DNA of 64,000 bases, taken from contig MFQZ01000010.1 of assembly GCA_001784435.1 (NCBI GenBank), forward strand, positions 169,960 through 233,959, read 5' to 3'. The DNA is from Candidatus Magasanikbacteria bacterium RIFOXYC2_FULL_42_28 (lineage in GTDB: Bacteria; Patescibacteriota; Patescibacteriia; Magasanikbacterales; GWA2-37-8). Shown here one piece after another: positions 9,807-64,000 of the stretch. Under the pieces are notes generated by a model, which did no database searches, was not told the DNA's origin, and was given only the letters and a program-made list of their open reading frames with translations. How positions within the stretch are numbered: position 1 is the first letter of the stretch; the number at the start of each line of letters is the position of its first letter. The translations under genes and the position numbers were made by a program.

Positions 9807-9899
9807 AAAACCTTTTAAGCATCCTTAAAAGGTTTTGTAAAAATAGGGTATGGCAGACGCGATTAGATACTTGACAGCGATGTGGTTAAATGTTACAAT
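9807..9899 (+). promoter_or_regulatory. copy 1 of palindrome+promoter element: aaaaccttttaag-catc-cttaaaaggtttt inverted repeat followed by TTGACA-N17-TACAAT
   Basis: Inverted repeat at 9807-9838; -35 TTGACA at 9871-9876 and -10 TACAAT at 9894-9899, read directly. Related copies at 11341 and 13074. Confidence 0.5.
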
Positions 9900-11340: not shown

Positions 11341-11451
11341 TTTTAAGTACATTTAAAAGGTTTTGAAAAAATAGGGGAGTTTTTGGGCATAAAGAGTTAT
11401 CCACAGAGGTAGTTTGACATTTTTAACTGTTTTAAGTATACTTAAAACATA
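11341..11451 (+). promoter_or_regulatory. copy 2 of palindrome+promoter element (degenerate palindrome, TTATCCACAG box, TTGACA-N17-TATACT, palindromic ttttaagtatacttaaaa over the -10)
   Basis: TTATCCACAG at 11397-11406, -35 at 11414-11419, -10 at 11437-11442. The perfect palindrome ttttaagtatacttaaaa at 11431-11448 is a candidate operator. Confidence 0.5.
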
Positions 11452-11477
11452 GCATAAAAATATGAAATGTTTTAAGT

Positions 11478-12692
11478 ATGTTTAAAGAATATATCAAAAG
11501 AGAGGTTTATGTTAATAAAATTCGTCCTTTTATCGGCAAGGATATTATTAAGGTTTTAGTTGGCCATAGACGGGTCGGTAAGAGTTATTTGTTGTATCAG
11601 ATAATGGATGAAGTCAAAAACCAAGATTCAAAAATAGAGATTGTGTATATTAATAAGGAGTTAAATGATTTTGCCGATATTGTTGATCATCAGAGCTTGC
11701 TTAAATATATTGATTTAAAAAAAAATAAAAATAGTGGCGGAAAAACCGCGCTATTTATCGACGAAGTGCAGGACATTATTAATTTTGAAAAGGCCCTGCG
11801 TCACCTAAACGCCTCCGGGCAGTTTGATATTTATTGTACAGGCAGTAATGCTAAATTGTTATCAGGCGAGTTGGCGACTTTTTTGTCCGGTCGGTATATA
11901 GAAGTTGAAGTGCGCGGTTTGTCGTACAATGAATTCTTGGAATTTCATAAATTGGCAAAAGGTAAAGAATCTCTATTTCGTTATATTAAATATGGCGGTT
12001 TACCATATTTAATTAATTTACCACCGGAAGACGATGCCGTGTATGATTATTTGCGCAACATTTATAACACTATCGTTTTAAAAGATGTGGTCGAGCGTTT
12101 TAGATTAAGGAATGTAAATTTGCTGGAAAGATTGATTGAATATCTTGCGGATAATGTTGGTAGTTTGGTTTCAGCCAATAATATCAGTGATTTTTTAAAA
12201 TCGCAAAAAATTAAAATTTCACCGAATACCATTTTAAATTATCTGTCATATTTGGCGGCGAGTTATTTTATTTATAAAGTTCCGCGGCTAGATATTGTGG
12301 GAAAGAAAATTTTTGAGGTTAATGATAAATTTTATTTTGAGGATTTAGGATTAAGGCATGTGGTGGTTAATTACAAACAATCGGATATTAATAAAATTTT
12401 AGAAAATTTAGTGTTTTCGCATTTGAAATATATTGGTTATGAGGTTAAGGTCGGCCAATTGGGCCAGCAGGAAATTGATTTTGTAGCAAGCCGGGGTGAG
12501 GCGCGGGTTTATGTGCAAGTGGCTTACTTGCTAAATAGCGAGGCGGTCAAGCAACGAGAGTTTGGCAATTTATTAAAAATTGATGATAATTATAAAAAAA
12601 TAGTGGTGAGTATGGATGATTTTGGCGGGGGGAATGTTAGCGGTATCGAGCAGTGGAATGTCGTAGATTTTTTATGTGATTTTCTCGGGTAG
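11478..12692 (+). CDS. second AAA+ ATPase of the COG1373/DUF4143 type (Walker A GHRRVGKS, Walker B LFIDEVQ)
   Basis: Motifs in the translation; paralogous architecture to the 9933 gene. Confidence 0.6.
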   Translation: MFKEYIKREVYVNKIRPFIGKDIIKVLVGHRRVGKSYLLYQIMDEVKNQDSKIEIVYINKELNDFADIVDHQSLLKYIDLKKNKNSGGKTALFIDEVQDIINFEKALRHLNASGQFDIYCTGSNAKLLSGELATFLSGRYIEVEVRGLSYNEFLEFHKLAKGKESLFRYIKYGGLPYLINLPPEDDAVYDYLRNIYNTIVLKDVVERFRLRNVNLLERLIEYLADNVGSLVSANNISDFLKSQKIKISPNTILNYLSYLAASYFIYKVPRLDIVGKKIFEVNDKFYFEDLGLRHVVVNYKQSDINKILENLVFSHLKYIGYEVKVGQLGQQEIDFVASRGEARVYVQVAYLLNSEAVKQREFGNLLKIDDNYKKIVVSMDDFGGGNVSGIEQWNVVDFLCDFLG

Positions 12693-13075: not shown

Positions 13076-13178
13076 AACCTTTTAAGCACCCTTAAAAGGT
13101 TTTGTAAAAATAGGGGAAATTTTAAGTATAAAGTTATCCACAGCACCGTTTGACTTATCAGTGTTATTTTGGTAAATT
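13074..13178 (+). promoter_or_regulatory. copy 3 of palindrome+promoter element (perfect aaaaccttttaag-cacc-cttaaaaggtttt, TTATCCACAG, TTGACT-N17-TAAATT)
   Basis: Palindrome at 13074-13105; TTATCCACAG at 13134-13143; -35 at 13150-13155. Confidence 0.5.
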
Positions 13179-22397: not shown

Positions 22398-22425
22398 TTG
22401 ACATATTTTTTAAACCTGATATAAT
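22398..22425 (+). promoter_or_regulatory. sigma70-like promoter TTGACA-N16-TATAAT for rplJ-rplL
   Basis: Hexamers read directly. Confidence 0.5.
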
Positions 22426-22434
22426 GCTTTTAAC

Positions 22435-22651
22435 CATAGACAGCAGGGGCTCAAAAAGCTTAATCATCCTGCCGAGGTGCAAAAGTGATTTATCACTTCA
22501 ATTGTCGATTTGCGCTTATAGGTCTGTGGAAAACACAGATTTTTTATTTACTGGCTTGAAAATTTTGATCCGCCTCGGGCGGAGAAAAAATTTTCACTAG
22601 CAGTAATTATCCCGGCCTTGGCCGGGATAATCCATAGTAATATAGGATAGT
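22435..22651 (+). promoter_or_regulatory. long structured 5' leader of rplJ (L10-leader-like autoregulatory region)
   Basis: Hairpins ctgtggaaaacacag, ccgcctcgggcgg and ttatcccggccttggccgggataa directly upstream of rplJ. The L10(L12)4 complex is known to regulate via such leaders. Confidence 0.45.
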
Positions 22652-28560: not shown

Positions 28561-28577
28561 TATGATATTGAGGTGAT

Positions 28578-28700
28578 AATGTCAAATTTCCAATTTCCAA
28601 TGTCAAATCAAGCCCAAAATCCAAAACCCAAATTACAAATTGACATTTGAGCTTTGATCTTGATTTGAAATTGGAAATTTGGATTTTGAAATTTTAAGTT
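28578..28700. repeat. MITE-like intergenic element, family A copy 1 (terminal inverted repeats tcaaatttccaatttccaa / ttggaaatttggattttga)
   Basis: Second copy at 32293-32402 sharing about 30 nt at each end. Core atttgagctttga is shared with family B. Confidence 0.7.
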
Positions 28701-28705
28701 TAATT

Positions 28706-31168: not shown

Positions 31169-32263
31169 ATGGTCATTGGGATAGAAGCCAGCCATGCTGT
31201 TAAACTGCCGCGCACCGGCGTAGAAGAAGCGTGCTGGCAAATGATTGAAAATCTCAAATCAACTCTACCGGCGGACACGCGGGTTATTTTGTATTCACAT
31301 ATTTTACCGACCGATCAGTTGAAAGATTTACCGCCGAACTGGAAGTGGAAAATTTTAAATTGGCCGTTGAAAAAATTATGGAGTCAATTACGATTATCTT
31401 ATGAATTATTTAAAAATCCACCTGATATATTTTTCGCGCTCGGACAACTTTTGCCGTTTTTTTTACCAAAAAAAATTAAAGTAGTCACTTTTGTGCATGA
31501 CAGCGCGTTTGAGGCCGAACCCGAAGTGTATAGTTTTTTAGGGAAAATTTATTTGAAATTAATGAATCGCCGCATCACGCGCCGAAGCGATAAAATTATC
31601 ACTTCCACCGAATTTAATAAACAAGAATTACAAAAGTATTATGGAGTAGCGTCGGAAAAAACTATCGTCGTCCCGCTCGCGTATGATAAAAATGTTTTTT
31701 GTATAGGCTCGGTAGTAACACTGTCGGTAATTTCTAAACCATATTTTATTTTTCTTGGTCGTTTGGAAGAAAAAAAGAATACTCCACTTTTGGTGCGCGC
31801 GTTTAATCAAGTCCGGCACGATGGTGTTGATTGCCAATTATTGTTAATCGGCAAGCCCGGCCATGGATTTGAACAAGTTCAATTTGGAATTGAAAATAGT
31901 CCATACCAAAACGACATCATTCGCCCCGGCTATGTTGATACCAAAGATTTGCCCGGCATAATTCGCGGAGCGCGCGCGCTAATTTTACCATCGCGCTACG
32001 AAGGTTTTGGCATGCCAATTTTGGAAGGAATGGCTTGTGGCACGCCGGTAATCGCGAGTGATATTCTGGCTTTACGAGAGGTTGGGGGAGATGCTGTGGC
32101 CTATATTCGCCCTACAGTGCCTGATTTGGCGACGATAATGGCCACGGCGGTGAAAGATTCCATTTGGCGACAAAACCACATCCAGGCCGGTTTAGAACAG
32201 GTTAAAAATTTCAGTTGGGTCAAAACTTCCGCTAAAATTGGCCAAGTGATTGCCAATATTTGA
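31169..32263 (+). CDS. GT4 (GT1-fold) glycosyltransferase
   Basis: C-terminal EGFGMPILEGMACGTPVIASD motif typical of GT4 retaining glycosyltransferases. Confidence 0.7.
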   Translation: MVIGIEASHAVKLPRTGVEEACWQMIENLKSTLPADTRVILYSHILPTDQLKDLPPNWKWKILNWPLKKLWSQLRLSYELFKNPPDIFFALGQLLPFFLPKKIKVVTFVHDSAFEAEPEVYSFLGKIYLKLMNRRITRRSDKIITSTEFNKQELQKYYGVASEKTIVVPLAYDKNVFCIGSVVTLSVISKPYFIFLGRLEEKKNTPLLVRAFNQVRHDGVDCQLLLIGKPGHGFEQVQFGIENSPYQNDIIRPGYVDTKDLPGIIRGARALILPSRYEGFGMPILEGMACGTPVIASDILALREVGGDAVAYIRPTVPDLATIMATAVKDSIWRQNHIQAGLEQVKNFSWVKTSAKIGQVIANI

Positions 32264-32292
32264 TATTTTTGTTATACTAACTGGTGTAAATA

Positions 32293-32402
32293 ATGTCCAA
32301 TTTCCAATTTCCAATGTCAAATCAATGTCAAAGCTCAAACGTTAAATTTGATATTTGGATTTTGGATTTGATTTGACATTGGTAATTTGGATTTTGACAT
32401 TA
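32293..32402. repeat. MITE-like intergenic element, family A copy 2
   Basis: aatgtccaatttccaatttccaatgtcaaatcaa ... ttggtaatttggattttgacatt; see the 28578 copy. Confidence 0.7.
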
Positions 32403-32446
32403 TCAAAATTATTGATAGCTATTTTGATAATAGCAGACATTACGTT

Positions 32447-33361
32447 ATGTGCAATTTTATTGGTAATACCAAAATTCACCAGTATTTTTCTAAAATTGAT
32501 GGTAATAGTCAACTTGGTCATGCTTATGGATTTGCCGGATTAAATCAGGTGGGCAAACTCACTTTGGCAAAAATTGCCGCCGCGAAATTGTTGGGCGTCA
32601 CAATAGAAAAATTAGCGAGTAGTCCGGATTTTTATTTTGTGGAACGAGCTGTTGATGAAAAAACCGGTAAATTAAAACAAGACATTTCCGTTGAACAAGC
32701 GCGTGATGTCAAAGATATTTTGTTGCGCCGGCCGTGGTTAGGCGGATATCAAGTTGTAATAATTGACGAGATTGAACATTTGAATAAGGCCTCGGCCAAT
32801 TCCTTGTTAAAATTTTTAGAAGAACCGGCCAGTAAGAGTATTATTTTTATTATTACCGAAGACGAAAGTAAATTATTGCCGACCGTGCGTTCGCGGTGCC
32901 AATGGTGGCGGTTTAATCCGGTGGCGGAAGCGGAAATTGCGACTGGATTGCGTGAGCGCGGTATTGACGCGAGTGTCGCGAGCGAAGTTGCGGTTTTGGC
33001 CTCGGGACGGCCGGGGCGCGCTTTGGATTTGGCGCAGAGTCCGGAAAAATTAGCGTTAATTAAAGCCGAAGTGGTTCGTTACGAGAATTTGCGAATTGCG
33101 CCGGTACACGAACGATTTAAAACCATAGAAAGTTTAGCCGGAGAAAAAAAGGGTGCTACGCGTGGTAAAGATGAGTTAGATGAAATTTTACAAATTTGGA
33201 CAACGATAGAGCGAAAAAAAATGTTGCTCGCGATCGGGGCGTCTCAAAACCAATCTGTTAAAGTAATTGACGGTCTGACCAAATTACGCGAGTATTTAGG
33301 GAAGAATATTCATCCGCGTTTAGCGTTAGAAGAATTCTCATTAAATTTACCAATTAATTAA
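32447..33361 (+). CDS. holB: DNA polymerase III delta' subunit
   Basis: AAA+ clamp-loader motifs GHAYGFAGLNQVGK and TVRSRCQ. Start taken at the ATG 32447, because the track start lies inside the repeat element. Confidence 0.7.
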   Translation: MCNFIGNTKIHQYFSKIDGNSQLGHAYGFAGLNQVGKLTLAKIAAAKLLGVTIEKLASSPDFYFVERAVDEKTGKLKQDISVEQARDVKDILLRRPWLGGYQVVIIDEIEHLNKASANSLLKFLEEPASKSIIFIITEDESKLLPTVRSRCQWWRFNPVAEAEIATGLRERGIDASVASEVAVLASGRPGRALDLAQSPEKLALIKAEVVRYENLRIAPVHERFKTIESLAGEKKGATRGKDELDEILQIWTTIERKKMLLAIGASQNQSVKVIDGLTKLREYLGKNIHPRLALEEFSLNLPIN

Positions 33362-33365
33362 ATAT

Positions 33366-33480
33366 TAAATTCTAAACTCTAAATTCTAAACAAATCCAAA
33401 AATTAAAATTCAAATACTAAAATTTGAGCTTTGAAAAATTTGAACTTGTTTAGAGTTTAGAAATTAGAGTTTAGAATTTT
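33366..33480. repeat. MITE-like intergenic element, family B copy 1 (TIRs aaattctaaactctaaattctaaacaa / ttgtttagagtttagaaattagagtttagaattt)
   Basis: Second copy at 58118-58236. Central atttgagctttga core is shared with family A. Confidence 0.7.
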
Positions 33481-33494
33481 TATAAAATAATTCT

Positions 33495-34568
33495 ATGCGT
33501 AAAATATTCTATCTATTACCACTCGTAGTTTTAATTCTCACCGGCGCCGGTTGTCTTTCGTTTGGCAGTAGCACCGCCGGACCGATGGGCGTGTTTACGT
33601 CCGCTGATAAAGGTGAGACCTGGGCCGAGTCCAATGTCTATCCGACGGTGAAAGGCGTCCAAAGTGTCGCTGGCGCTAGAATATTCCGTTTACATACCGA
33701 CCCGTCCGATCCCAACGCAATTTATATGGCCACGCGCGGGCAAGGATTGTTTTATTCTTATAATAACGGTGGCTCTTGGCAGACATTTTCCGCTTTGGCC
33801 GGTAAATTTATTTATGGTTTTACGGTCGCGCCTCAAGATAAATGCGTGATGTACGCGAGCGATGGCCAACATATTTATAAAACCGATGATTGTGGCCGGA
33901 AATGGAATTTGTCTTACACCGAAGAACGCCCGAGCGAACATGTTACCGCGCTCGCGGTTGATTATGGTAATATCAATATAGTTTACGGTACCTTGATTGG
34001 CGGTGATTTTATGTTAAGTGAAGATGGCGGTCGCAGTTGGAAGGTGACAGCTCGTTTTGGTTTTGAAACGCAATATATGGTGGCTGATCAATTTCGCCCC
34101 AAGCGCGTGTATGTGGCCACGCAACGCAATGGCCTGCAACGTTCTGATGACGGTGGGCGCACTTTTCAAGATTTAAGCGAAGGCCTTGATAATTTTAGTG
34201 ATAGTTCTAACTTTTATCGTTTAGCGTTAAATCCAAAGACCCCGGGTGGTTTGTTTTGGATTTCTAAATATGGCATTTTAGAGTCCAATGACGCGGGCGT
34301 AACCTGGAGCGAGTTGAAATTGTTGACTCCGCCGGGCGGGGTGAATATTTACGCTTTCGCGATTAACCCCGGGAATTTAAATGAGATTTATTATACCGGC
34401 ACGATTTTGGGGCAAAAAAATGAGCATGTTCGTTCCACGTTTTATAAAACCACGGACGGCGGTAAAAGTTGGGTGACCAAAAAGTTGCCCACTAATTCTA
34501 TCCCCGTGTCGTTATTAATCAGCCCCAATAATGATAAACGGTTGTTCCTTGGGTTTACTAGCTTGTAA
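33495..34568 (+). CDS. lipoprotein with BNR/Asp-box repeat beta-propeller
   Basis: Signal peptide with lipobox (LTGAGC). Seven S-x-D-x-G-x-(T/S)-W repeats (SADKGETW, SYNNGGSW, TDDCGRKW, SEDGGRSW, SDDGGRTF, SNDAGVTW, TTDGGKSW). Confidence 0.65.
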   Translation: MRKIFYLLPLVVLILTGAGCLSFGSSTAGPMGVFTSADKGETWAESNVYPTVKGVQSVAGARIFRLHTDPSDPNAIYMATRGQGLFYSYNNGGSWQTFSALAGKFIYGFTVAPQDKCVMYASDGQHIYKTDDCGRKWNLSYTEERPSEHVTALAVDYGNINIVYGTLIGGDFMLSEDGGRSWKVTARFGFETQYMVADQFRPKRVYVATQRNGLQRSDDGGRTFQDLSEGLDNFSDSSNFYRLALNPKTPGGLFWISKYGILESNDAGVTWSELKLLTPPGGVNIYAFAINPGNLNEIYYTGTILGQKNEHVRSTFYKTTDGGKSWVTKKLPTNSIPVSLLISPNNDKRLFLGFTSL

Positions 34569-39935: not shown

Positions 39936-40008
39936 GCCGATGTAGCTCAGTTGGTAGAGCACCTCCATGGTAAGGAGGTGGTCAGCGGTTCAAATCCGCT
40001 CATCGGCT
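39936..40008 (+). tRNA. tRNA-Thr (anticodon GGU)
   Basis: Hand-folded: acceptor GCCGATG/CATCGGC, anticodon loop ATGGTAA, T-loop TTCAAAT; no encoded CCA. Confidence 0.7.
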
Positions 40009-40017
40009 CGGAGTATT

Positions 40018-40093
40018 GCCGTCTTAGCTCAGTTGGTAGAGCAACGGTTTTGTAAACCGTAGGTCCAGGGTTCAAATCCCTGAGACGGCTCCA
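40018..40093 (+). tRNA. tRNA-Thr (anticodon UGU)
   Basis: Acceptor GCCGTCT/AGACGGC, anticodon loop TTTGTAA, encoded CCA. Confidence 0.7.
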
Positions 40094-40113
40094 GTCGGCA
40101 TTAGTTCTTTAAT

Positions 40114-40195
40114 GGGCAGGTACCGAAGCGGTCAAACGGGGTAGACTGTAAATCTACTGGCTCTGCCTTCCAAGGTTCGAATCCTTGCCTGCCCA
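40114..40195 (+). tRNA. tRNA-Tyr (anticodon GUA)
   Basis: Acceptor GGGCAGG/CCTGCCC, anticodon loop CTGTAAA, long variable arm, T-loop TTCGAAT. Confidence 0.65.
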
Positions 40196-40226
40196 CATGG
40201 TAAATTAAAAATTAATTTAATATTCT

Positions 40227-41238: not shown

Positions 41239-41309
41239 AGGGGGTTCGTATAATGGTAGTACGTTGCTCTCCAAAAGCAAACGCGCGGGTTCGATTCCTG
41301 CACCCCCTG
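41239..41309 (+). tRNA. tRNA-Trp (anticodon CCA)
   Basis: Acceptor AGGGGGT/ACCCCCT, anticodon loop CTCCAAA, T-loop TTCGATT. Confidence 0.65.
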
Positions 41310-41444
41310 CGATTTAGCCAAATTTATTTGGCTAAATTTATTTAGGAATCGAACGGGAAAGGGAGAAAACGGGAGTTTTCTCTTTGCTGAGGAAAGTACA
41401 CGAAAACCCGAAGGTTTTCGTGAGAGCCCCAAAGGGGCGAGTGA

Positions 41445-56886: not shown

Positions 56887-58110
56887 ATGTTATTTCAAGA
56901 TTTGATGGAAGAAACATTTTTTTCCGTGACCGCGAATAAATCGCGATCGGCTTTGACAATTCTCGGGATTGTAATTGGTATTAGCTCGGTGATTGCGATG
57001 ATTTCGGTGGGGCAGGGTGCGAGTCAAGATATCGCCAGTAGAATTTCCGCGTTGGGCACAAATTTATTAGTGGTGACGCCGGGCAATGCTCGTCAAAGTG
57101 GAGGAAATTTAGTGCGCAGTGGTAGTGGTTCGGCTACTAGTTTGACTTTGGAAGATGCCATTGCGGTCAAAAGCGTGTCCGGTGCTAAAATTGTCGCGCC
57201 CACTATTTCGGCGCGCAAACAAGTGACTGCGAAAGGTAAAAATACCAACACCAGTATCAACGGCATCGATGATCAATATTTTATTGTAAAAAATATTAAT
57301 TTAGCGCAAGGAATTGGAATTACGAGTGGGCAGGTGACAGCACGTTCCAAAGTGGCGGTGCTCGGGCCGACGACGCGCGATGATTTGTTCGGTGTGGACG
57401 CGAGCGTGGTTGGATTAAAAATTCGCATTGGCAGTCAAGAATATTCAGTGGTGGGTGTTACCGAAGCCAAAGGCGGGACGGGTTTTGGGAGTTCGGATGA
57501 TTTGATTTATATTCCGATTAGCACGGCGGCCCAATATTTAACCGGTTCACAATCAGTCAGCAATATTAACATTGAAGCTACGACCGCCGAGGAGATGACA
57601 ATGGTGCAGGCGGAAGTGATGGCGCTTTTGATGGCACGGCATCGGATTTCCGATCCACTATTAGCGGATTTTTCAATTTTAAATCAAGAAGATTTATTGT
57701 CTTCGGCATCATCGGTGGCCGGCACGATGACAATGTTACTCGGCGCGATCGCGGGAATTTCTTTGTTGGTTGGCGGTATTGGTATTATGAATATGATGTT
57801 AACAACCGTCACGGAACGCACCCGCGAAATTGGTTTGCGTAAATCACTGGGCGCGAAAAATCATGACATCAGCGCGCAATTTTTAGCCGAGGCCGTGGCG
57901 TTTACTTTTACCGGCGGGATTATTGGAATAATTTTAGGGTGGCTCGCGTCTTTGGCAATTCACCAGTTTTCCGGTTTAACCACAGTAGTAAATTGGGCGT
58001 CAGTTTCTTTATCGTTTGGAATCGCCGCCGTAGTTGGTTTGGTGTTTGGATATTATCCGGCCAAGCGCGCGGCGAAATTGGATCCGATTGAGGCGCTAAG
58101 ATATCAATAA
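56887..58110 (+). CDS. ABC transporter permease with FtsX-like domain (MacB-type)
   Basis: N-terminal TM, large periplasmic domain, C-terminal 3-TM FtsX-like region. Confidence 0.7.
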   Translation: MLFQDLMEETFFSVTANKSRSALTILGIVIGISSVIAMISVGQGASQDIASRISALGTNLLVVTPGNARQSGGNLVRSGSGSATSLTLEDAIAVKSVSGAKIVAPTISARKQVTAKGKNTNTSINGIDDQYFIVKNINLAQGIGITSGQVTARSKVAVLGPTTRDDLFGVDASVVGLKIRIGSQEYSVVGVTEAKGGTGFGSSDDLIYIPISTAAQYLTGSQSVSNINIEATTAEEMTMVQAEVMALLMARHRISDPLLADFSILNQEDLLSSASSVAGTMTMLLGAIAGISLLVGGIGIMNMMLTTVTERTREIGLRKSLGAKNHDISAQFLAEAVAFTFTGGIIGIILGWLASLAIHQFSGLTTVVNWASVSLSFGIAAVVGLVFGYYPAKRAAKLDPIEALRYQ

Positions 58111-58117
58111 GTTAAAA

Positions 58118-58236
58118 CTATAAATACTAAACTCTAAATTCTAAACAAATTCAAATTATTCAAATCCAAAATTTAAACATTTGAATTTTATGTTTTGAAC
58201 TTGTTTAGAGTTTAGTATTTCGTGTTTAGTATTTAA
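58118..58236. repeat. MITE-like intergenic element, family B copy 2
   Basis: aaactctaaattctaaacaaat ... gaacttgtttagagtttag matches the 33366 copy. Confidence 0.7.
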
Positions 58237-58246
58237 AATTAAGTAT

Positions 58247-58810
58247 ATGTCCAAACTATTAACAATATTTTCTGTCGGTGCAATTTTGGTTTTTACTTCC
58301 GGCTGTGGCAATACAAAACAACCAGACAACAACACTGCGCCAACTGATTTTACCGCGCGTCGAAATGTTTCTACCACACCGTTTGGCGCGGATTTTCCTA
58401 TTGGCACGACCACTGATTTGGCAATTGGTAAAAAAGTTATGGTGGTGGGTTCGGCTGGGTCAGATGGAATTGTCAGCGCCGCGCAAATTGTGGTTGGTGA
58501 ATTTAATTTTGGTATGGGTTTTGACGGTGCTCGATTCGCGACCGACACACCGACCGGACAACAAAGGCAGCGTCCAAATTTTAACGGCCAAGGTGGTGGC
58601 GGCCAAGGTGGTGGAAATTTCGCCGGACGAGCAGGCGACAGTAGGGGAATGACGCGAGTAGTTGGCGAAATTATCAAAATGGACAATACCAGTTTGGTGG
58701 TAAAAACCAATGATGGTGGCTCAAAAATCGTTTTTTATTCAGCAAATGTCAAGATTTTGCTGCCACCCATCGCGATTACGCCTGTGAAAACTGCCAGCAC
58801 TACGCCATAA
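58247..58810 (+). CDS. Gly-rich lipoprotein, function unknown
   Basis: Signal peptide with lipobox FTSGC; GQGGGGQGGGNFAGRAGD low-complexity stretch. Confidence 0.45.
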   Translation: MSKLLTIFSVGAILVFTSGCGNTKQPDNNTAPTDFTARRNVSTTPFGADFPIGTTTDLAIGKKVMVVGSAGSDGIVSAAQIVVGEFNFGMGFDGARFATDTPTGQQRQRPNFNGQGGGGQGGGNFAGRAGDSRGMTRVVGEIIKMDNTSLVVKTNDGGSKIVFYSANVKILLPPIAITPVKTASTTP

Positions 58811-61783: not shown

Positions 61784-61843
61784 CCCCCTTGCCAAAAAAA
61801 TGGTTTTAAGGTAAGATATTCACACTTTTACTTTTAACACTAT

Positions 61844-61918
61844 CTGTCATTCCCGCGAAAGCGGGAATCCAGTCGTCAAATTTAAAATTCTGGATCCCCG
61901 TTTTCACGGGGATGACAA
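61844..61918. repeat. two inverted copies of the TGTCATT-family element between secA and secD (ctgtcattcccgcgaaagcgggaatccagtcgtcaa ... ctggatccccgttttcacggggatgacaa)
   Basis: Read directly. Each copy contains a GNRA-type hairpin (cccgcGAAAgcggg); together they form a long hairpin. Confidence 0.7.
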
Positions 61919-61929
61919 TTAAATTAATT

Positions 61930-64000
61930 ATGGCCAATAAATATCATCAAGCCGTTGCAAAAAATTTAACTCGTTCTACCATTAGATGGCGTGTGGCCGG
62001 CGTGGCGATTTTGTTAGTCGCGTCGCTAACGGTCGTGTTGCCTAATTATGCCAATTCCGGAATCAATTGGATTAATTCCAAGACCAATATCGGCTTGCCA
62101 CAGTTGCCGGCCGGCGGTTTTAATTTAGGTTTGGATTTACAGGGTGGCGCGCATTTAATTTATGAGGCCAAAACCGACAATATCGCGGCGGCCGACCGCG
62201 CTGATTCCGTTGAGGGTGTGCGTGATGTGATTGAACGTCGTGTTCGTGGTGGTTTGGGTGTGGCCGAGCCGCTCGTCCAGACAACGCGCGTGGGTGAGAC
62301 CTATCGCGTGATTGTGGAGTTGCCGGGTGTTAAGGATGTTAATCAGGCGATCCAAATGATTGGCGGTACGCCGGTGTTGGAATTTAAAGAAGAAAATAAC
62401 GAGCCACCGCGCCCCTTGACCGCGACAGAACAAAAAGAATTAAAGGATTTTAATACCGCGGCGAAAAAGAAAGCGAACGAAGCATTGGTCGCGGCCAAAA
62501 CCGATTTTGCCGGAGCGGTAACAAAATATACCGAAGATGACCGCAGTAAAAATAACGGCGGGGATATCGGTTTTATTGACAGTCGAACCTTTCCTGAGAT
62601 TTTTGCTTGGGCCAAAACCGTTAAAGACGGTGAAATTGGCAAAAATTTAGTTGAAAGCGCCGAAGGTTATAGTGTCGTTAAACGCGTGGCTGAAAAAGAC
62701 GGCGAACGCTATGTCTCGGCTTCGCATATTTTAATTTGTTTCCTTGGCGCCGAGCGCTGTGATAATCCGCAATATACACGTGATCAAGCGACTGCTAAAA
62801 TTGCCGAATTAAAAACCAAAGCCACTCCACAGAATTTCGCGCAACTGGCGCGGGAAAATTCCACGGAACCGGGCGCGGCTGACCGCGAAGGGGACTTGGG
62901 TAAATTTAAAAAGGGCGAAATGGTGCCGGCTTTTGAAGCGGTGGCGTTTGACCTGCCCGTGGGGACAATTTCCGAACCGGTGGAGACCCAATTTGGTTTT
63001 CATTTAATTTATAAAACAAATGATGAAACGGAAAAGCAATATCAAGTAAGCAGAATTTTGGCGCGCACTAAAACTGAAATTGATATTGTGCCACCGGTAT
63101 CGCAGTGGAAGCCAACTGGTTTGTCCGGTAAGCAACTCGCGCGCGCGGAAGTTACTGAAGATTATCAGACCGGCCAAGTGCAAGTCAGTTTAAATTTTGA
63201 TGATGAAGGCGTTAAATTATTTTCGGAAATTACTACACGTAATGTTGGCAAGCCAGTGGCCATTCTGTTAGATGGTGAAGAAATCAGTGTGCCGACAGTT
63301 AATGAGCCGATTTTATCCGGCAGTGCCGTTATTTCCGGCGGGTTTACTTTAATGGAAGCGAAATTATTGGCGCAACGGCTTAATTCCGGCGCTCTGCCGG
63401 TGCCGGTTGAACTCGTAAGTCAACAGAGTGTGGGTGCGACGCTGGGATTTGATTCTTTAAATAAAAGTTTTAAAGCCGGTTTAATTGGTTTGGCAGTGGT
63501 TATATTATTCATGATTTTGTACTACCGCTTGTCGGGTATTCTCGCGGCTTTGAGTTTGGCGGTTTATGCGGCTTTGAGTTTGGCTATCTTTAAATTAGTC
63601 GGCGTTACCCTAACTCTTTCCGGTATCGCCGGTTTCGTTCTATCAATTGGTATGGCGGTGGACGCCAATGTGCTGGTATTTGAACGTCTTAAAGAAGAGT
63701 TGCGTTTGGGCAAAAGTTTGAAATCGGCCATGGAAGAGGCGTTTGTGCGCGCCTGGACATCAATTCGGGACAGCAACATCACCGGCCTTATCAGTTGTGT
63801 GTTTATGGTTTGGATGGGCGTGGGTTTTGTGCAGGGCTTTGCCGTTACTTTGGCTATTGGTATCCTGGTATCAATGTTTTCCGCCGTTATTATTACTCGC
63901 ACTTTGGCGCGTTGGATTTTTAGTTGGTTTAAAGAAGATGGCAATTGGTTATTTTTGGGACATCTTAAAAAAGACGCGTCTGCCAAGTCGGTCACCAATA
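61930..64000 (+). CDS. secD: SecD (or fused SecDF) with two parvulin-type PPIase domains inserted in the periplasmic head; 3'-truncated by window edge
   Basis: SecD P1 motifs (LGLDLQGG, VIVELPGV), then two PpiC-like domains (SKNNGGDIGFI...; REGDLGKFKKGEMVPAFEAVAFDLPVGTISEPVETQFGFHLI), then SecD TM bundle (LAAFVLSIGMAVDANVLVFERLKEE). Confidence 0.75.
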   Translation, partial: MANKYHQAVAKNLTRSTIRWRVAGVAILLVASLTVVLPNYANSGINWINSKTNIGLPQLPAGGFNLGLDLQGGAHLIYEAKTDNIAAADRADSVEGVRDVIERRVRGGLGVAEPLVQTTRVGETYRVIVELPGVKDVNQAIQMIGGTPVLEFKEENNEPPRPLTATEQKELKDFNTAAKKKANEALVAAKTDFAGAVTKYTEDDRSKNNGGDIGFIDSRTFPEIFAWAKTVKDGEIGKNLVESAEGYSVVKRVAEKDGERYVSASHILICFLGAERCDNPQYTRDQATAKIAELKTKATPQNFAQLARENSTEPGAADREGDLGKFKKGEMVPAFEAVAFDLPVGTISEPVETQFGFHLIYKTNDETEKQYQVSRILARTKTEIDIVPPVSQWKPTGLSGKQLARAEVTEDYQTGQVQVSLNFDDEGVKLFSEITTRNVGKPVAILLDGEEISVPTVNEPILSGSAVISGGFTLMEAKLLAQRLNSGALPVPVELVSQQSVGATLGFDSLNKSFKAGLIGLAVVILFMILYYRLSGILAALSLAVYAALSLAIFKLVGVTLTLSGIAGFVLSIGMAVDANVLVFERLKEELRLGKSLKSAMEEAFVRAWTSIRDSNITGLISCVFMVWMGVGFVQGFAVTLAIGILVSMFSAVIITRTLARWIFSWFKEDGNWLFLGHLKKDASAKSVTN

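Follow-up and report, generated by a model that had tools for sequence, protein, structure and literature searches.

What kind of repeat fills the spacer behind the holB-like gene of Candidatus Magasanikbacteria bacterium RIFOXYC2_FULL_42_28, and how did it come to lie there? The locus belongs to the 64,000-nucleotide stretch of contig MFQZ01000010.1 analysed here (hereafter the window), in which an earlier reading of the letters alone, the original prediction, had described two copies of a family B of elements resembling MITEs (miniature inverted-repeat transposable elements), at 33366-33480 and 58118-58236, with a core related to that of a second family, A. Our analysis indicates that the two B copies (B1 and B2) and two A copies (A1 and A2) are probably members of a family of hairpin cassettes with heptad-built arms, similar to the intervening sequences (IVSs) of rRNA, and that all four lack an open reading frame (ORF). 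The full-size form of the family appears to carry one small gene in the hairpin loop, in the way that rRNA IVSs occur with and without an ORF. The MITE reading is partly right, in that the elements are dispersed, palindromic, inserted and of one superfamily, but it is wrong in kind.

Folds and covariance-model matches place B1 at 33360-33480 and B2 at 58113-58240, slightly wider limits than those first proposed; neither is assigned to a strand. The termini quoted for the two copies were confirmed, AAACTCTAAATTCTAAACAAAT occurring solely at 33374 and 58129 and GAACTTGTTTAGAGTTTAG solely at 33442 and 58197. When the window was searched with the 20-mer CTAAACTCTAAATTCTAAAC, allowing up to three mismatches, five matches were obtained against 0.03 expected, on both arms of B1 and B2 and nowhere else. 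The copies are 75% identical without gaps and 83% with gaps, and independent assemblies (ENA, NCBI and two Logan runs) carry identical window DNA, so the B copies are not an assembly artefact. An inverted-repeat search returned both as long imperfect palindromes. B1 is an ORF-less heptad-armed hairpin with its left arm at ~33360-33415, loop at 33416-33421 and right arm at ~33422-33479, and the B2 stem spans ~58121-58235 with the loop near 58177-58180. Predicted RNA folds of the two strands reach -35.1 and -37.9 kcal/mol for B1 (z -7.8 and -7.0) and -33.3 and -37.2 kcal/mol for B2 (z -6.7 and -6.8), forming hairpins of 45-55 bp; none of 200 shuffles was equally stable. The window elements are 114-138 nt long with 19-30% G+C, their inverted-repeat arms of 25-74 nt are 70-96% complementary so that the entire element is palindromic, and all six reading frames contain stop codons in each of B1, B2, A1 and A2.

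The arms are periodic. Autocorrelation at lag 7 was 0.49-0.64 in all eight arms of the four elements, as against 0.06-0.25 at lags 3-4. The heptamer units are degenerate, not perfect, and follow a common grammar, with NNCTAAA units on the outside, NNCAAAA units on the inside and the complement on the opposite arm. In the B copies the arms read (NNCTAAA)n and then CAAATCCAAAA..., with complementary sequence on the other side; the A arms are built of TTTCCAA/TGTCAAA units. Whichever strand is read, the 5' arm is poor in G and the 3' arm poor in C. Within one copy the arms differ by whole heptamers, the right arm of B1 having one extra unit and that of B2 an extra TTTCGTG unit. The terminal inverted repeats (TIRs) that had been proposed are no discrete ends: the complementary region is the whole arm of degenerate heptamers.

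The A copies are built in the same way. A1 (28567-28704, no strand) is an inverted repeat between a 494-aa ORF and a DUF4012 gene, and A2 (32290-32403, no strand) is an inverted repeat in the 5' leader of holB, just downstream of a promoter-like site, with a predicted fold of -46 kcal/mol (z -7.8). We built a covariance model of 124 positions and 36 pairs from B1, B2 and 28 hairpins of other phyla, with no A sequence included, and ran it over the whole window with filters off; the calibration was short and the E-values are rough. B2 and B1 scored 90.1 bits (E 1e-19) and 89.7 bits (E 1.3e-19), and A1 and A2 followed with 72.9 bits (E 2e-15) and 63.5 bits (E 5e-13). The next-best site in the window, 61830-61931, scored 20.6 bits (E 0.025) and is a different element. 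In addition, ATTTGAGCTTTGA is exact in A1 (at 28645) and B1 (at 33422), and the 12-mer TTTGAGCTTTGA is exact in A1, in B1 and, on the other strand, in A2, and a search allowing one mismatch gave no other site in the window. These data bear out the proposal that A and B form one superfamily with a related core. The objection that the shared core might be just AT-rich low complexity fails because of the scores of the A copies and the exclusivity of TTTGAGCTTTGA. The ends are also modular, in line with the exchangeable ends that had been suggested, a Roizmanbacteria copy (L026) having B-type outer units around an A-type interior; such mixed units fit a modular, heptad-wise variation.

All four elements lie between protein-coding genes, and there is no rRNA gene within the window. 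Both B copies occupy gene-to-gene junctions, as originally described: B1 fills the spacer between holB and a BNR lipoprotein gene and B2 that between a MacB/FtsX permease gene and a lipoprotein gene, and the genes on either side are co-directional. Spacers between co-directional genes in the window have a median of 25.5 nt; those holding B1 and B2 measure 133 and 136 nt. In three relatives (63-75% amino acid identity) the holB-to-BNR spacer measures 18-19 nt, and the MacB-to-lipoprotein spacer is 25 and 34 nt in L188 and L190 (80% and 73% amino acid identity). For the A copies, the ORF494-to-DUF4012 spacer is 145 nt here and 2 nt in the relative L006, and the GT4-to-holB spacer is 183 nt here and 39 nt in L005. 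No array traces were seen at the four sites in relatives, and the covariance model gave no match in ~62 kb of related Magasanikbacteria, compared with four in the 64-kb window. This comparison of filled with empty sites holds at species or genus distance, the nearest relatives of the flanking proteins being 75-80% identical. At the level of sequence, all four elements are shown to be insertions, acquired after the lineage split from its sequenced relatives.

The copies also record how they multiplied. In both B1 and B2 the arms are asymmetric in the same way (CAAATyCAAA on the left and TTTGAACTTG on the right), and A1 and A2 share an arm-to-arm asymmetry of their own. Each pair therefore goes back to one ancestor that was already asymmetric, and did not arise twice in place. 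We take the shared asymmetries, together with the differences by whole heptamers, to show that the elements were copied within the genome.

We then asked how widely this architecture occurs. Species-representative genomes searched with the B 20-mer gave at least 120 loci. Among the matches listed, the bacterial ones fall in Patescibacteria (many classes), Saccharibacteria, Omnitrophota, Planctomycetota, Dehalococcoidia, Nitrospirota, Desulfobacterota, Elusimicrobiota, Kiritimatiellota, Bacteroidota and Gammaproteobacteria, and the archaeal ones in anaerobic methanotrophic archaea (ANME-1/ANME-2) and Undinarchaeota. Compact hairpins of the same layout number 48 among these matches and are 46-247 nt long, most of them 85-180 nt. 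They share sequence beyond the search pattern (...CTAAACAAATyCAAAA ... TTTTGrATTTGTTTAGrrTTTAG) and have 17-36% G+C in host loci of 33-55% G+C. No ORF of at least 100 aa contains any of the 48, so all are intergenic, usually 0-30 nt from the neighbouring ORFs; where ORFs were called on both sides (36 hairpins), the gene pairs are co-directional in 29 cases, convergent in five and divergent in two. In the same 8-kb loci the covariance model picked up additional copies that lack the 20-mer, as many as three within 3 kb. Other matches to the pattern, mostly in Bacteroidota and Bacillota, are plain tandem arrays. Part of the phylum breadth may reflect the small heptamer alphabet; the shared grammar still needs explaining.

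Orientation within these loci is random: of the 29 elements whose neighbouring genes are co-directional, 15 have the more stable fold on the sense strand and 14 on the antisense strand, with 112 G-U pairs on each, and this test of stability and G-U pairs gave no sign of selection on a sense-strand RNA. A scan of viral contigs gave four matches, none of the hairpin type, and so no sign of a phage vector. Two variants were seen in passing. The ANME hairpins L027, L033, L107 and L125 hold a nested G+C-rich insert in the loop (...GGGGCTCTGCCCCACGACCCCGCAAGCCCAGTAGGGGCTTA...), a hint that these loops are the target of a second small element. In L028, L049, L089, L101, L116, L118 (Anaerobacillus sp. 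MEB173) and L098 the arms stand in reverse order, a TTTAGAG arm preceding a CTCTAAA arm; 60-100 nt or a PF05635 gene separates the two, and there are several copies per genome.

The tie to one gene family came from metagenomes. A scan with a B-specific right-arm 21-mer returned 48 loci, in several of which the arm adjoins a gene start. The recurrent sequence TTTGGTCATTTGAAyTTGTTTAG reads on the other strand as CTAAACAArTTCAA-ATG-ACC-AAA, a heptad leader followed by a start codon. Of 27 ORFs of at least 70 aa whose start lies no more than 70 nt beyond an arm, ten fall into a single family, PF05635/TIGR02436. These arm-adjacent ORFs score 46-51 bits against PF05635, named '23S rRNA-intervening sequence protein' (cut-off 33.8), and 69-76 bits against TIGR02436, the 'four helix bundle protein' (cut-off 24). 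The bracketed gene, which accompanies arms of this type in Patescibacteria, Omnitrophota, Planctomycetota, Chloroflexota, Desulfobacterota, Nitrospirota and ANME archaea, encodes an Avd-like protein of ~120 aa, and in every such PF05635 gene examined a second, inverted arm comes right after the stop codon.

As a control for bias, homologues were picked by protein similarity alone, which yielded three contexts (L180, L182 and L185). Here the gene stands between co-directional housekeeping genes (AMP-ligase and ACT, HisG and ECH, or MTHFR and UbiA) and is bracketed as ...CTAAACAAATCCyA-ATG ... stop ... ATTGTTTAGGATTT. Hidden Markov models (HMMs) of the left and right arms, built solely from ORF-less hairpins of other phyla and without the window copies, matched exactly both flanks of the three genes (E 8e-8 to 1e-3). 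Their sole other matches in these loci fall near L185 6536-6576, a further arm-like site ~1.2 kb downstream of the gene, and they gave no matches in the Magasanikbacteria control loci L004-L006. Without its ORF, L180 would come to ~121 nt, as long as B1. Of the PF05635 homologues nearest to the query, many sit on contigs of just 0.5-2 kb, as expected of a multi-copy repeat that breaks short-read assembly.

Heptamer arms also surround the gene in cultured organisms. A tblastn search of complete plasmids recovered annotated four-helix-bundle genes in Nostoc, Anabaena, Aulosira, Planktothrix, Pseudanabaena, Chondrinema and Bernardetia, and in the ten plasmid regions several of them interrupt operons, between cas2 and cas1, drmD and MmeI, an RND adaptor and its permease, or fabH and M20. 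We ranked windows by heptad periodicity in eight loci with 5-kb flanks, including the cultured Nostoc, Aulosira and Planktothrix plasmids. On either side of the PF05635 gene, the immediately adjoining windows were among the four strongest lag-7 windows in all eight, being the top two in L197, L180, L182 and L199 and ranking 2-3, or 1 and 3-4, in the other four. In seven of these loci the array on one side is the inverted complement of that on the other; the eighth, Planktothrix (L199), is mixed.

The units around these genes are lineage-specific: AATTCAA/TTGAATT in Aulosira and Nostoc flagelliforme, CAAGTCG/CGACTTG in Nostoc ATCC 53789, GTCGGAG/CTCCGAC and GGGTGTG/ACACCCT at the first and second genes of N. 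punctiforme pNPUN01, AGTAAAA/TTTTACT in Nostoc TCL26 and Anabaena 7122, TCAGTTA/TAACTGA on the Chondrinema litorale plasmid (L194, arms at ~374-573 and 931-1140), and CTAAA-type units in metagenomic Chloroflexi-like loci. The Chondrinema unit is also that of unexplained arrays in Beggiatoaceae, cyanobacteria and Bacteroidetes (PMC4679880). On the cyanobacterial and Bacteroidota plasmids L193, L201, L195, L199 and L194 the heptamer-armed genes interrupt defence and transport operons, with placements that include the cas2/cas1 gap (on the opposite strand), a position before cas1, the gap between drmD and an MmeI-type enzyme gene, and that between an RND adaptor and its permease.

How an insert of this kind could persist within an operon may be pictured as follows. 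The elements would be co-transcribed with the flanking genes, A2 lying in the holB leader and B1, B2 and A1 lying 0-30 nt from co-directional genes. For A2, the promoter-like site TTGCCA-17-TATACT (with a TG), a consensus match only, lies upstream at 32250-32278 on the plus strand, at the end of the GT4 gene; its hexamers are also seen in the relatives L004 and L005, and this conserved upstream site would place A2 inside the holB transcript. The element RNA would fold into an imperfect duplex of 45-55 bp, as the predicted folds suggest, and by analogy with IVSs this duplex could be a substrate of RNase III or a stable barrier to exonucleases. The duplex, with its stops in six frames, would prevent translation through the element, and insertion between cistrons would then be harmless. 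The number of heptamers would drift via replication slippage.

Several observations weigh against taking the window elements for ORF-less cassettes. Neither of the marks of a mobile element that were looked for was found: the 48 hairpins show no excess of the direct repeats that would mark a target-site duplication (repeats of 2 nt at the ends of six, against 4.1 expected, and none of 5 nt or more, the ends of heptad arrays being fuzzy and the nearest relatives only 75-80% identical), and the best 25 of the 54 Pfam families matched by 44 window ORFs include no transposase or other mobility enzyme. No PF05635 gene lies within the 64-kb window, where the copies are ORF-less, and A-type units (TTTCCAA/TGTCAAA) flank no ORF among the loci examined. 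Pairing cells amount to 85.1%, compared with 84.7% in column shuffles, the arms being conserved and partly fixed by the search pattern; since pairing is no higher than in shuffles, structural selection is not separable from sequence conservation. RNAalifold predicted no consensus on the gappy alignment, and the consensus pairing was taken from individual folds. Most loci were selected by the heptad pattern and carry an ascertainment bias, and the unbiased samples are small, comprising three metagenomic genes, which form one subfamily (68-98% identical), and ten plasmid genes. Finally, the empty hairpins may be cassettes that lost their ORF or the gene may have invaded pre-existing hairpins; evolution in either direction is compatible with the data.

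A classic MITE, that is, a deletion derivative of an insertion sequence (IS) moved in trans by a transposase encoded elsewhere in the genome, is an unlikely alternative. The elements are small (well under the ~600 bp of MITEs), non-coding, palindromic and multi-copy, their sites are empty in relatives and their orientation is random, all of which such a MITE would show, and the enzyme could lie outside the 64 kb covered. The part of the original prediction that called the elements MITE-like stands to this extent, and for their insertion and common superfamily; it finds no support as to the target-site duplications and the transposase-bearing parent with the same termini that the term MITE implies, nor as to discrete TIRs, none of which was found in the searches described above. 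Complementarity spans the whole heptamer arm instead of a discrete terminal binding site, and the ORF-bearing relatives with the same arms encode PF05635/TIGR02436, none of them a transposase. The same grammar also recurs in different phyla, archaea included, whereas 97.4% of the MITE clusters of prokaryotes are confined to one genus (PMC11602168).

We consider it quite unlikely that the elements are host-made regulatory hairpins or heptamer simple sequence repeats (SSRs) that arose in place by slippage, template switching and selection, their likeness across phyla being convergent. Hairpins of this origin would be kept as terminators, attenuators, mRNA stabilisers or translational insulators. 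Heptanucleotide repeats are indeed the most over-represented class of long SSR in prokaryotic intergenic DNA, and Xanthomonas has 70-75 convergent inverted heptamer pairs per genome (PMC4692102, PMC4679880); that arms differ by whole heptamers, that stop codons stand in six frames and that most copies lie between co-directional genes would fit as well. The asymmetries shared by B1 and B2 and by A1 and A2, however, identify the copies as descendants of an ancestor and not as independent products, and relatives lack any trace of an array at the four sites. A function in the transcript finds no support in strand-specific stability or G-U pairs, and consensus scans for promoters and terminators found no terminator and no above-chance promoter at the four elements. 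Searches of Rfam at gathering and permissive thresholds returned no family, generic miRNA-precursor hairpins scoring 18-30 bits against cut-offs of 64-102. Elements of 17-36% G+C in genomes of 33-55% G+C are likewise unexpected of an origin in place, and convergence leaves the specific tie to one gene family unexplained.

Integron-type attC sites, or repetitive extragenic palindromic (REP) sequences and their hairpin-forming REPIN doublets mobilised by a REP-associated tyrosine transposase (RAYT), are largely refuted and highly improbable: imperfect hairpins between co-directional ORFs, an inner TCTAAAC...GTTTAGA vaguely like RYYYAAC...GTTRRRY and a lack of target-site duplication that would suit single-strand hairpin recombination are set against units that fit neither RYYYAAC...GTTRRRY nor the GTAG/CGTC heads of REPs, flanks of housekeeping genes in conserved synteny (holB, mreB, secA, frr) instead of cassettes, random orientation, AT-rich elements of 115-140 nt compared with G+C-rich REPs of 20-40 nt (PMC3733652), and no intI, RAYT or Y1 transposase among the best 25 of the 54 window Pfam families.

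If the window elements are ORF-less members of a heptad-armed, IVS-like cassette family, a wider and more tentative generalisation suggests itself. Inverted heptamer arrays in prokaryotic intergenic DNA could conceivably be the arms, or the remnants of arms, of a single class of selfish hairpin cassettes with PF05635 cargo, of which rRNA IVSs would be a special case that landed in rRNA. As a speculation of similar standing, that class would cover the elements of the candidate phyla radiation (CPR), the cyanobacterial arrays of the short tandemly repeated repetitive (STRR) type, the TAACTGA arrays and the heptamers of the Coxiella IVS. The PF05635 family shares homology with Avd, which serves diversity-generating retroelements (DGRs) as accessory protein (PMC10053308), and it is possible, though doubtful, that the protein makes, maintains or moves the heptad arms; it might, for instance, bind the duplex that the heptads form, or partner a reverse transcriptase in the manner of Avd in DGRs. 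Three puzzles, separate for decades, would be tied together in this way: the over-representation of heptamers, the nature and spread of rRNA IVSs, and the role outside DGRs of the PF05635/TIGR02436 'four helix bundle protein' family, which is very large and multi-copy. Should this be true genome-wide, a hairpin cassette would be tolerated in essential transcripts, its stem being removed or neutralised at the RNA level. For annotation, the elements would account for numerous long spacers, and probably also for numerous short contigs, in metagenome-assembled genomes of CPR, Omnitrophota, Chloroflexota and others, and cultured strains exist in which the cassette model can be tested. Searches of the literature by sequence string and topic, which reached few subscription journals, found no account of these elements or of a link between heptamers and four-helix-bundle genes, and no description of such cassettes in mRNA spacers; a prior description is possible.

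The window itself is gene-dense, with almost all genes on the plus strand and ~42% G+C, and its proteins are 100% identical to Candidatus Magasanikbacteria RIFOXYC2_FULL_42 entries (CPR/Patescibacteria). Upstream of B1 lies the holB-like gene for DNA polymerase III delta' (32447-33361, plus strand; PF13177 and the gene call in L001), and downstream the BNR/Sortilin-like lipoprotein gene (33495-34568, plus strand; Pfam), whose product is 100% identical to a RIFOXYC2_FULL_42 protein. B2 is preceded by the MacB/FtsX permease gene (56887-58110, plus strand; PF12704 and PF02687) and followed by a 187-aa lipoprotein gene (58247-58810, plus strand), an ORF with signal peptide and Cys read from the sequence, whose syntenic ORF in L188 and L190 has 203 aa. 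The C-terminus of the holB-like product (33332-33361) reads ...LNLPIN before the stop, 3-4 residues longer than the ...LNL or ...LNF of relatives (L004 and L005); since the ends of holB differ in this way, the stop codon beside B1 is not ancestral, and B1, on inserting, appears to have taken the place of the terminal part of the holB gene or of the spacer. An unrelated 134-nt hairpin with 32-nt arms (94% complementary) and a G+C-rich centre lies between mreB and the GT4 gene in L006 (4325-4458), so that differing hairpin inserts sit in the same operon across Magasanikbacteria lineages.

The site at 61830-61931 was considered as a fifth copy and rejected as a different element at its 20.6 bits in the covariance model. 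At 61836-61912, after secA, lies another small palindromic element, TGTCATTCCCGCGAAAGCGGGAATCC...GGATCCCCGTTTTCACGGGGATGACA, with two G+C-rich hairpins within TGTCAT/ATGACA ends, the first of which fits ATTCCC-N8-GGGAAT. A similar element occupies the spacer between the ABC-ATPase and MacB genes of a related genome (L188 1536-1616), and the type looks like a second repeat family in Magasanikbacteria. A further intergenic repeat family, TTTTAAGnnnnCTTAAAAGGTTTTGnAAAAATAGGG, has copies at 9813-9866, 11341-11394, 11430-11483 and 13080-13133, includes two inverted-repeat hairpins and lies in a stretch of lower G+C at 9.8-16 kb; it could serve several genes as promoter or operator, or be a defence-island repeat. 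AAA_14/DUF4143 (two ORFs) and AbiEii families occur among the window ORFs, and we suspect, without having mapped them, that they belong to the same stretch. The window also holds a ribosomal protein L10 leader at 22416-22554 (Rfam RF00557, 73 bits), genes for tRNA-Thr, tRNA-Thr and tRNA-Tyr and then tRNA-Trp at 39936-40196 and 41239-41310, and a 129-aa ORF (1884-2273) in which five tandem 21-nt units (TTGAAATCCGATGTGGCCATC) at 1965-2069 encode a 7-residue protein repeat.

Several known systems invite comparison. REPINs with their RAYTs are hairpin-forming, intergenic and multi-copy like the present elements, lack target-site duplications, of which no excess was found here either, and evolve in the genome as units (PMC3116915); the REPs differ in being short, G+C-rich, GTAG/CGTC-tagged and RAYT-dependent, and the window elements have none of these features. 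Correia/NEMIS, ERIC and RUP elements are likewise palindromic and multi-copy, 100-170 nt in length, and lie between genes in intergenic DNA, where they are co-transcribed. Their hairpins can be substrates of RNase III or RNase E. They differ from the window family in their TA-like duplications, discrete TIRs, IS parents and restriction to a genus (PMC11602168), whereas the window family is heptad-armed and phylum-spanning, with PF05635 relatives and with no duplication or IS parent found.

The heptamer arrays described as STRR, as GGGAATC arrays in Xanthomonas and as TAACTGA arrays in Beggiatoaceae and Bacteroidetes have in common with these elements a 7-nt unit, an intergenic position often near gene ends, a frequent arrangement in convergent inverted pairs and an occurrence in distant phyla without a known mechanism (PMC4692102, PMC4679880); for the TAACTGA arrays, shared by distant phyla, the wording is 'with no evident mechanism'. 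They differ in that their descriptions speak of near-perfect tandem arrays and do not treat them as discrete units of insertion. A direct connection is provided by Chondrinema, where TCAGTTA/TAACTGA flanks a PF05635 gene, and by Nostoc, where STRR-like arrays do so.

The rRNA IVSs, the nearest of the known kinds, which occur in 23S and 16S rRNA (Leptospira, Coxiella, Salmonella) and in CPR, differ from the window elements in location, being inserted in rRNA helices 25 or 45 and not in spacers of protein-coding operons. The stems in the window are made up entirely of degenerate heptamers and are of greater length (45-55 bp, compared with 28 bp in Coxiella), the window copies are ORF-less, and excision by RNase III would apply to them only by analogy. 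The Coxiella IVS is a 428-nt selfish insert of unknown origin and mobility, whose 28-bp terminal stem is cut by RNase III and whose loop holds a PF05635 ORF (PMC4990558); CPR rRNA insertions also contain PF05635 ORFs (PMC11270868). The likeness lies in a small selfish insert with terminal inverted repeats that form a long stem, and in an optional ORF for a four-helix bundle of ~120 aa in the loop, ORF-less versions of ~100 nt being known (PMC4990558, PMC11270868). It extends to the heptamers, two or three of which stand in tandem just before the ATG of the Coxiella ORF in numbers that vary between strains (PMC4990558), and to the arms of the ORF-bearing PF05635 relatives, which match those of the window elements.

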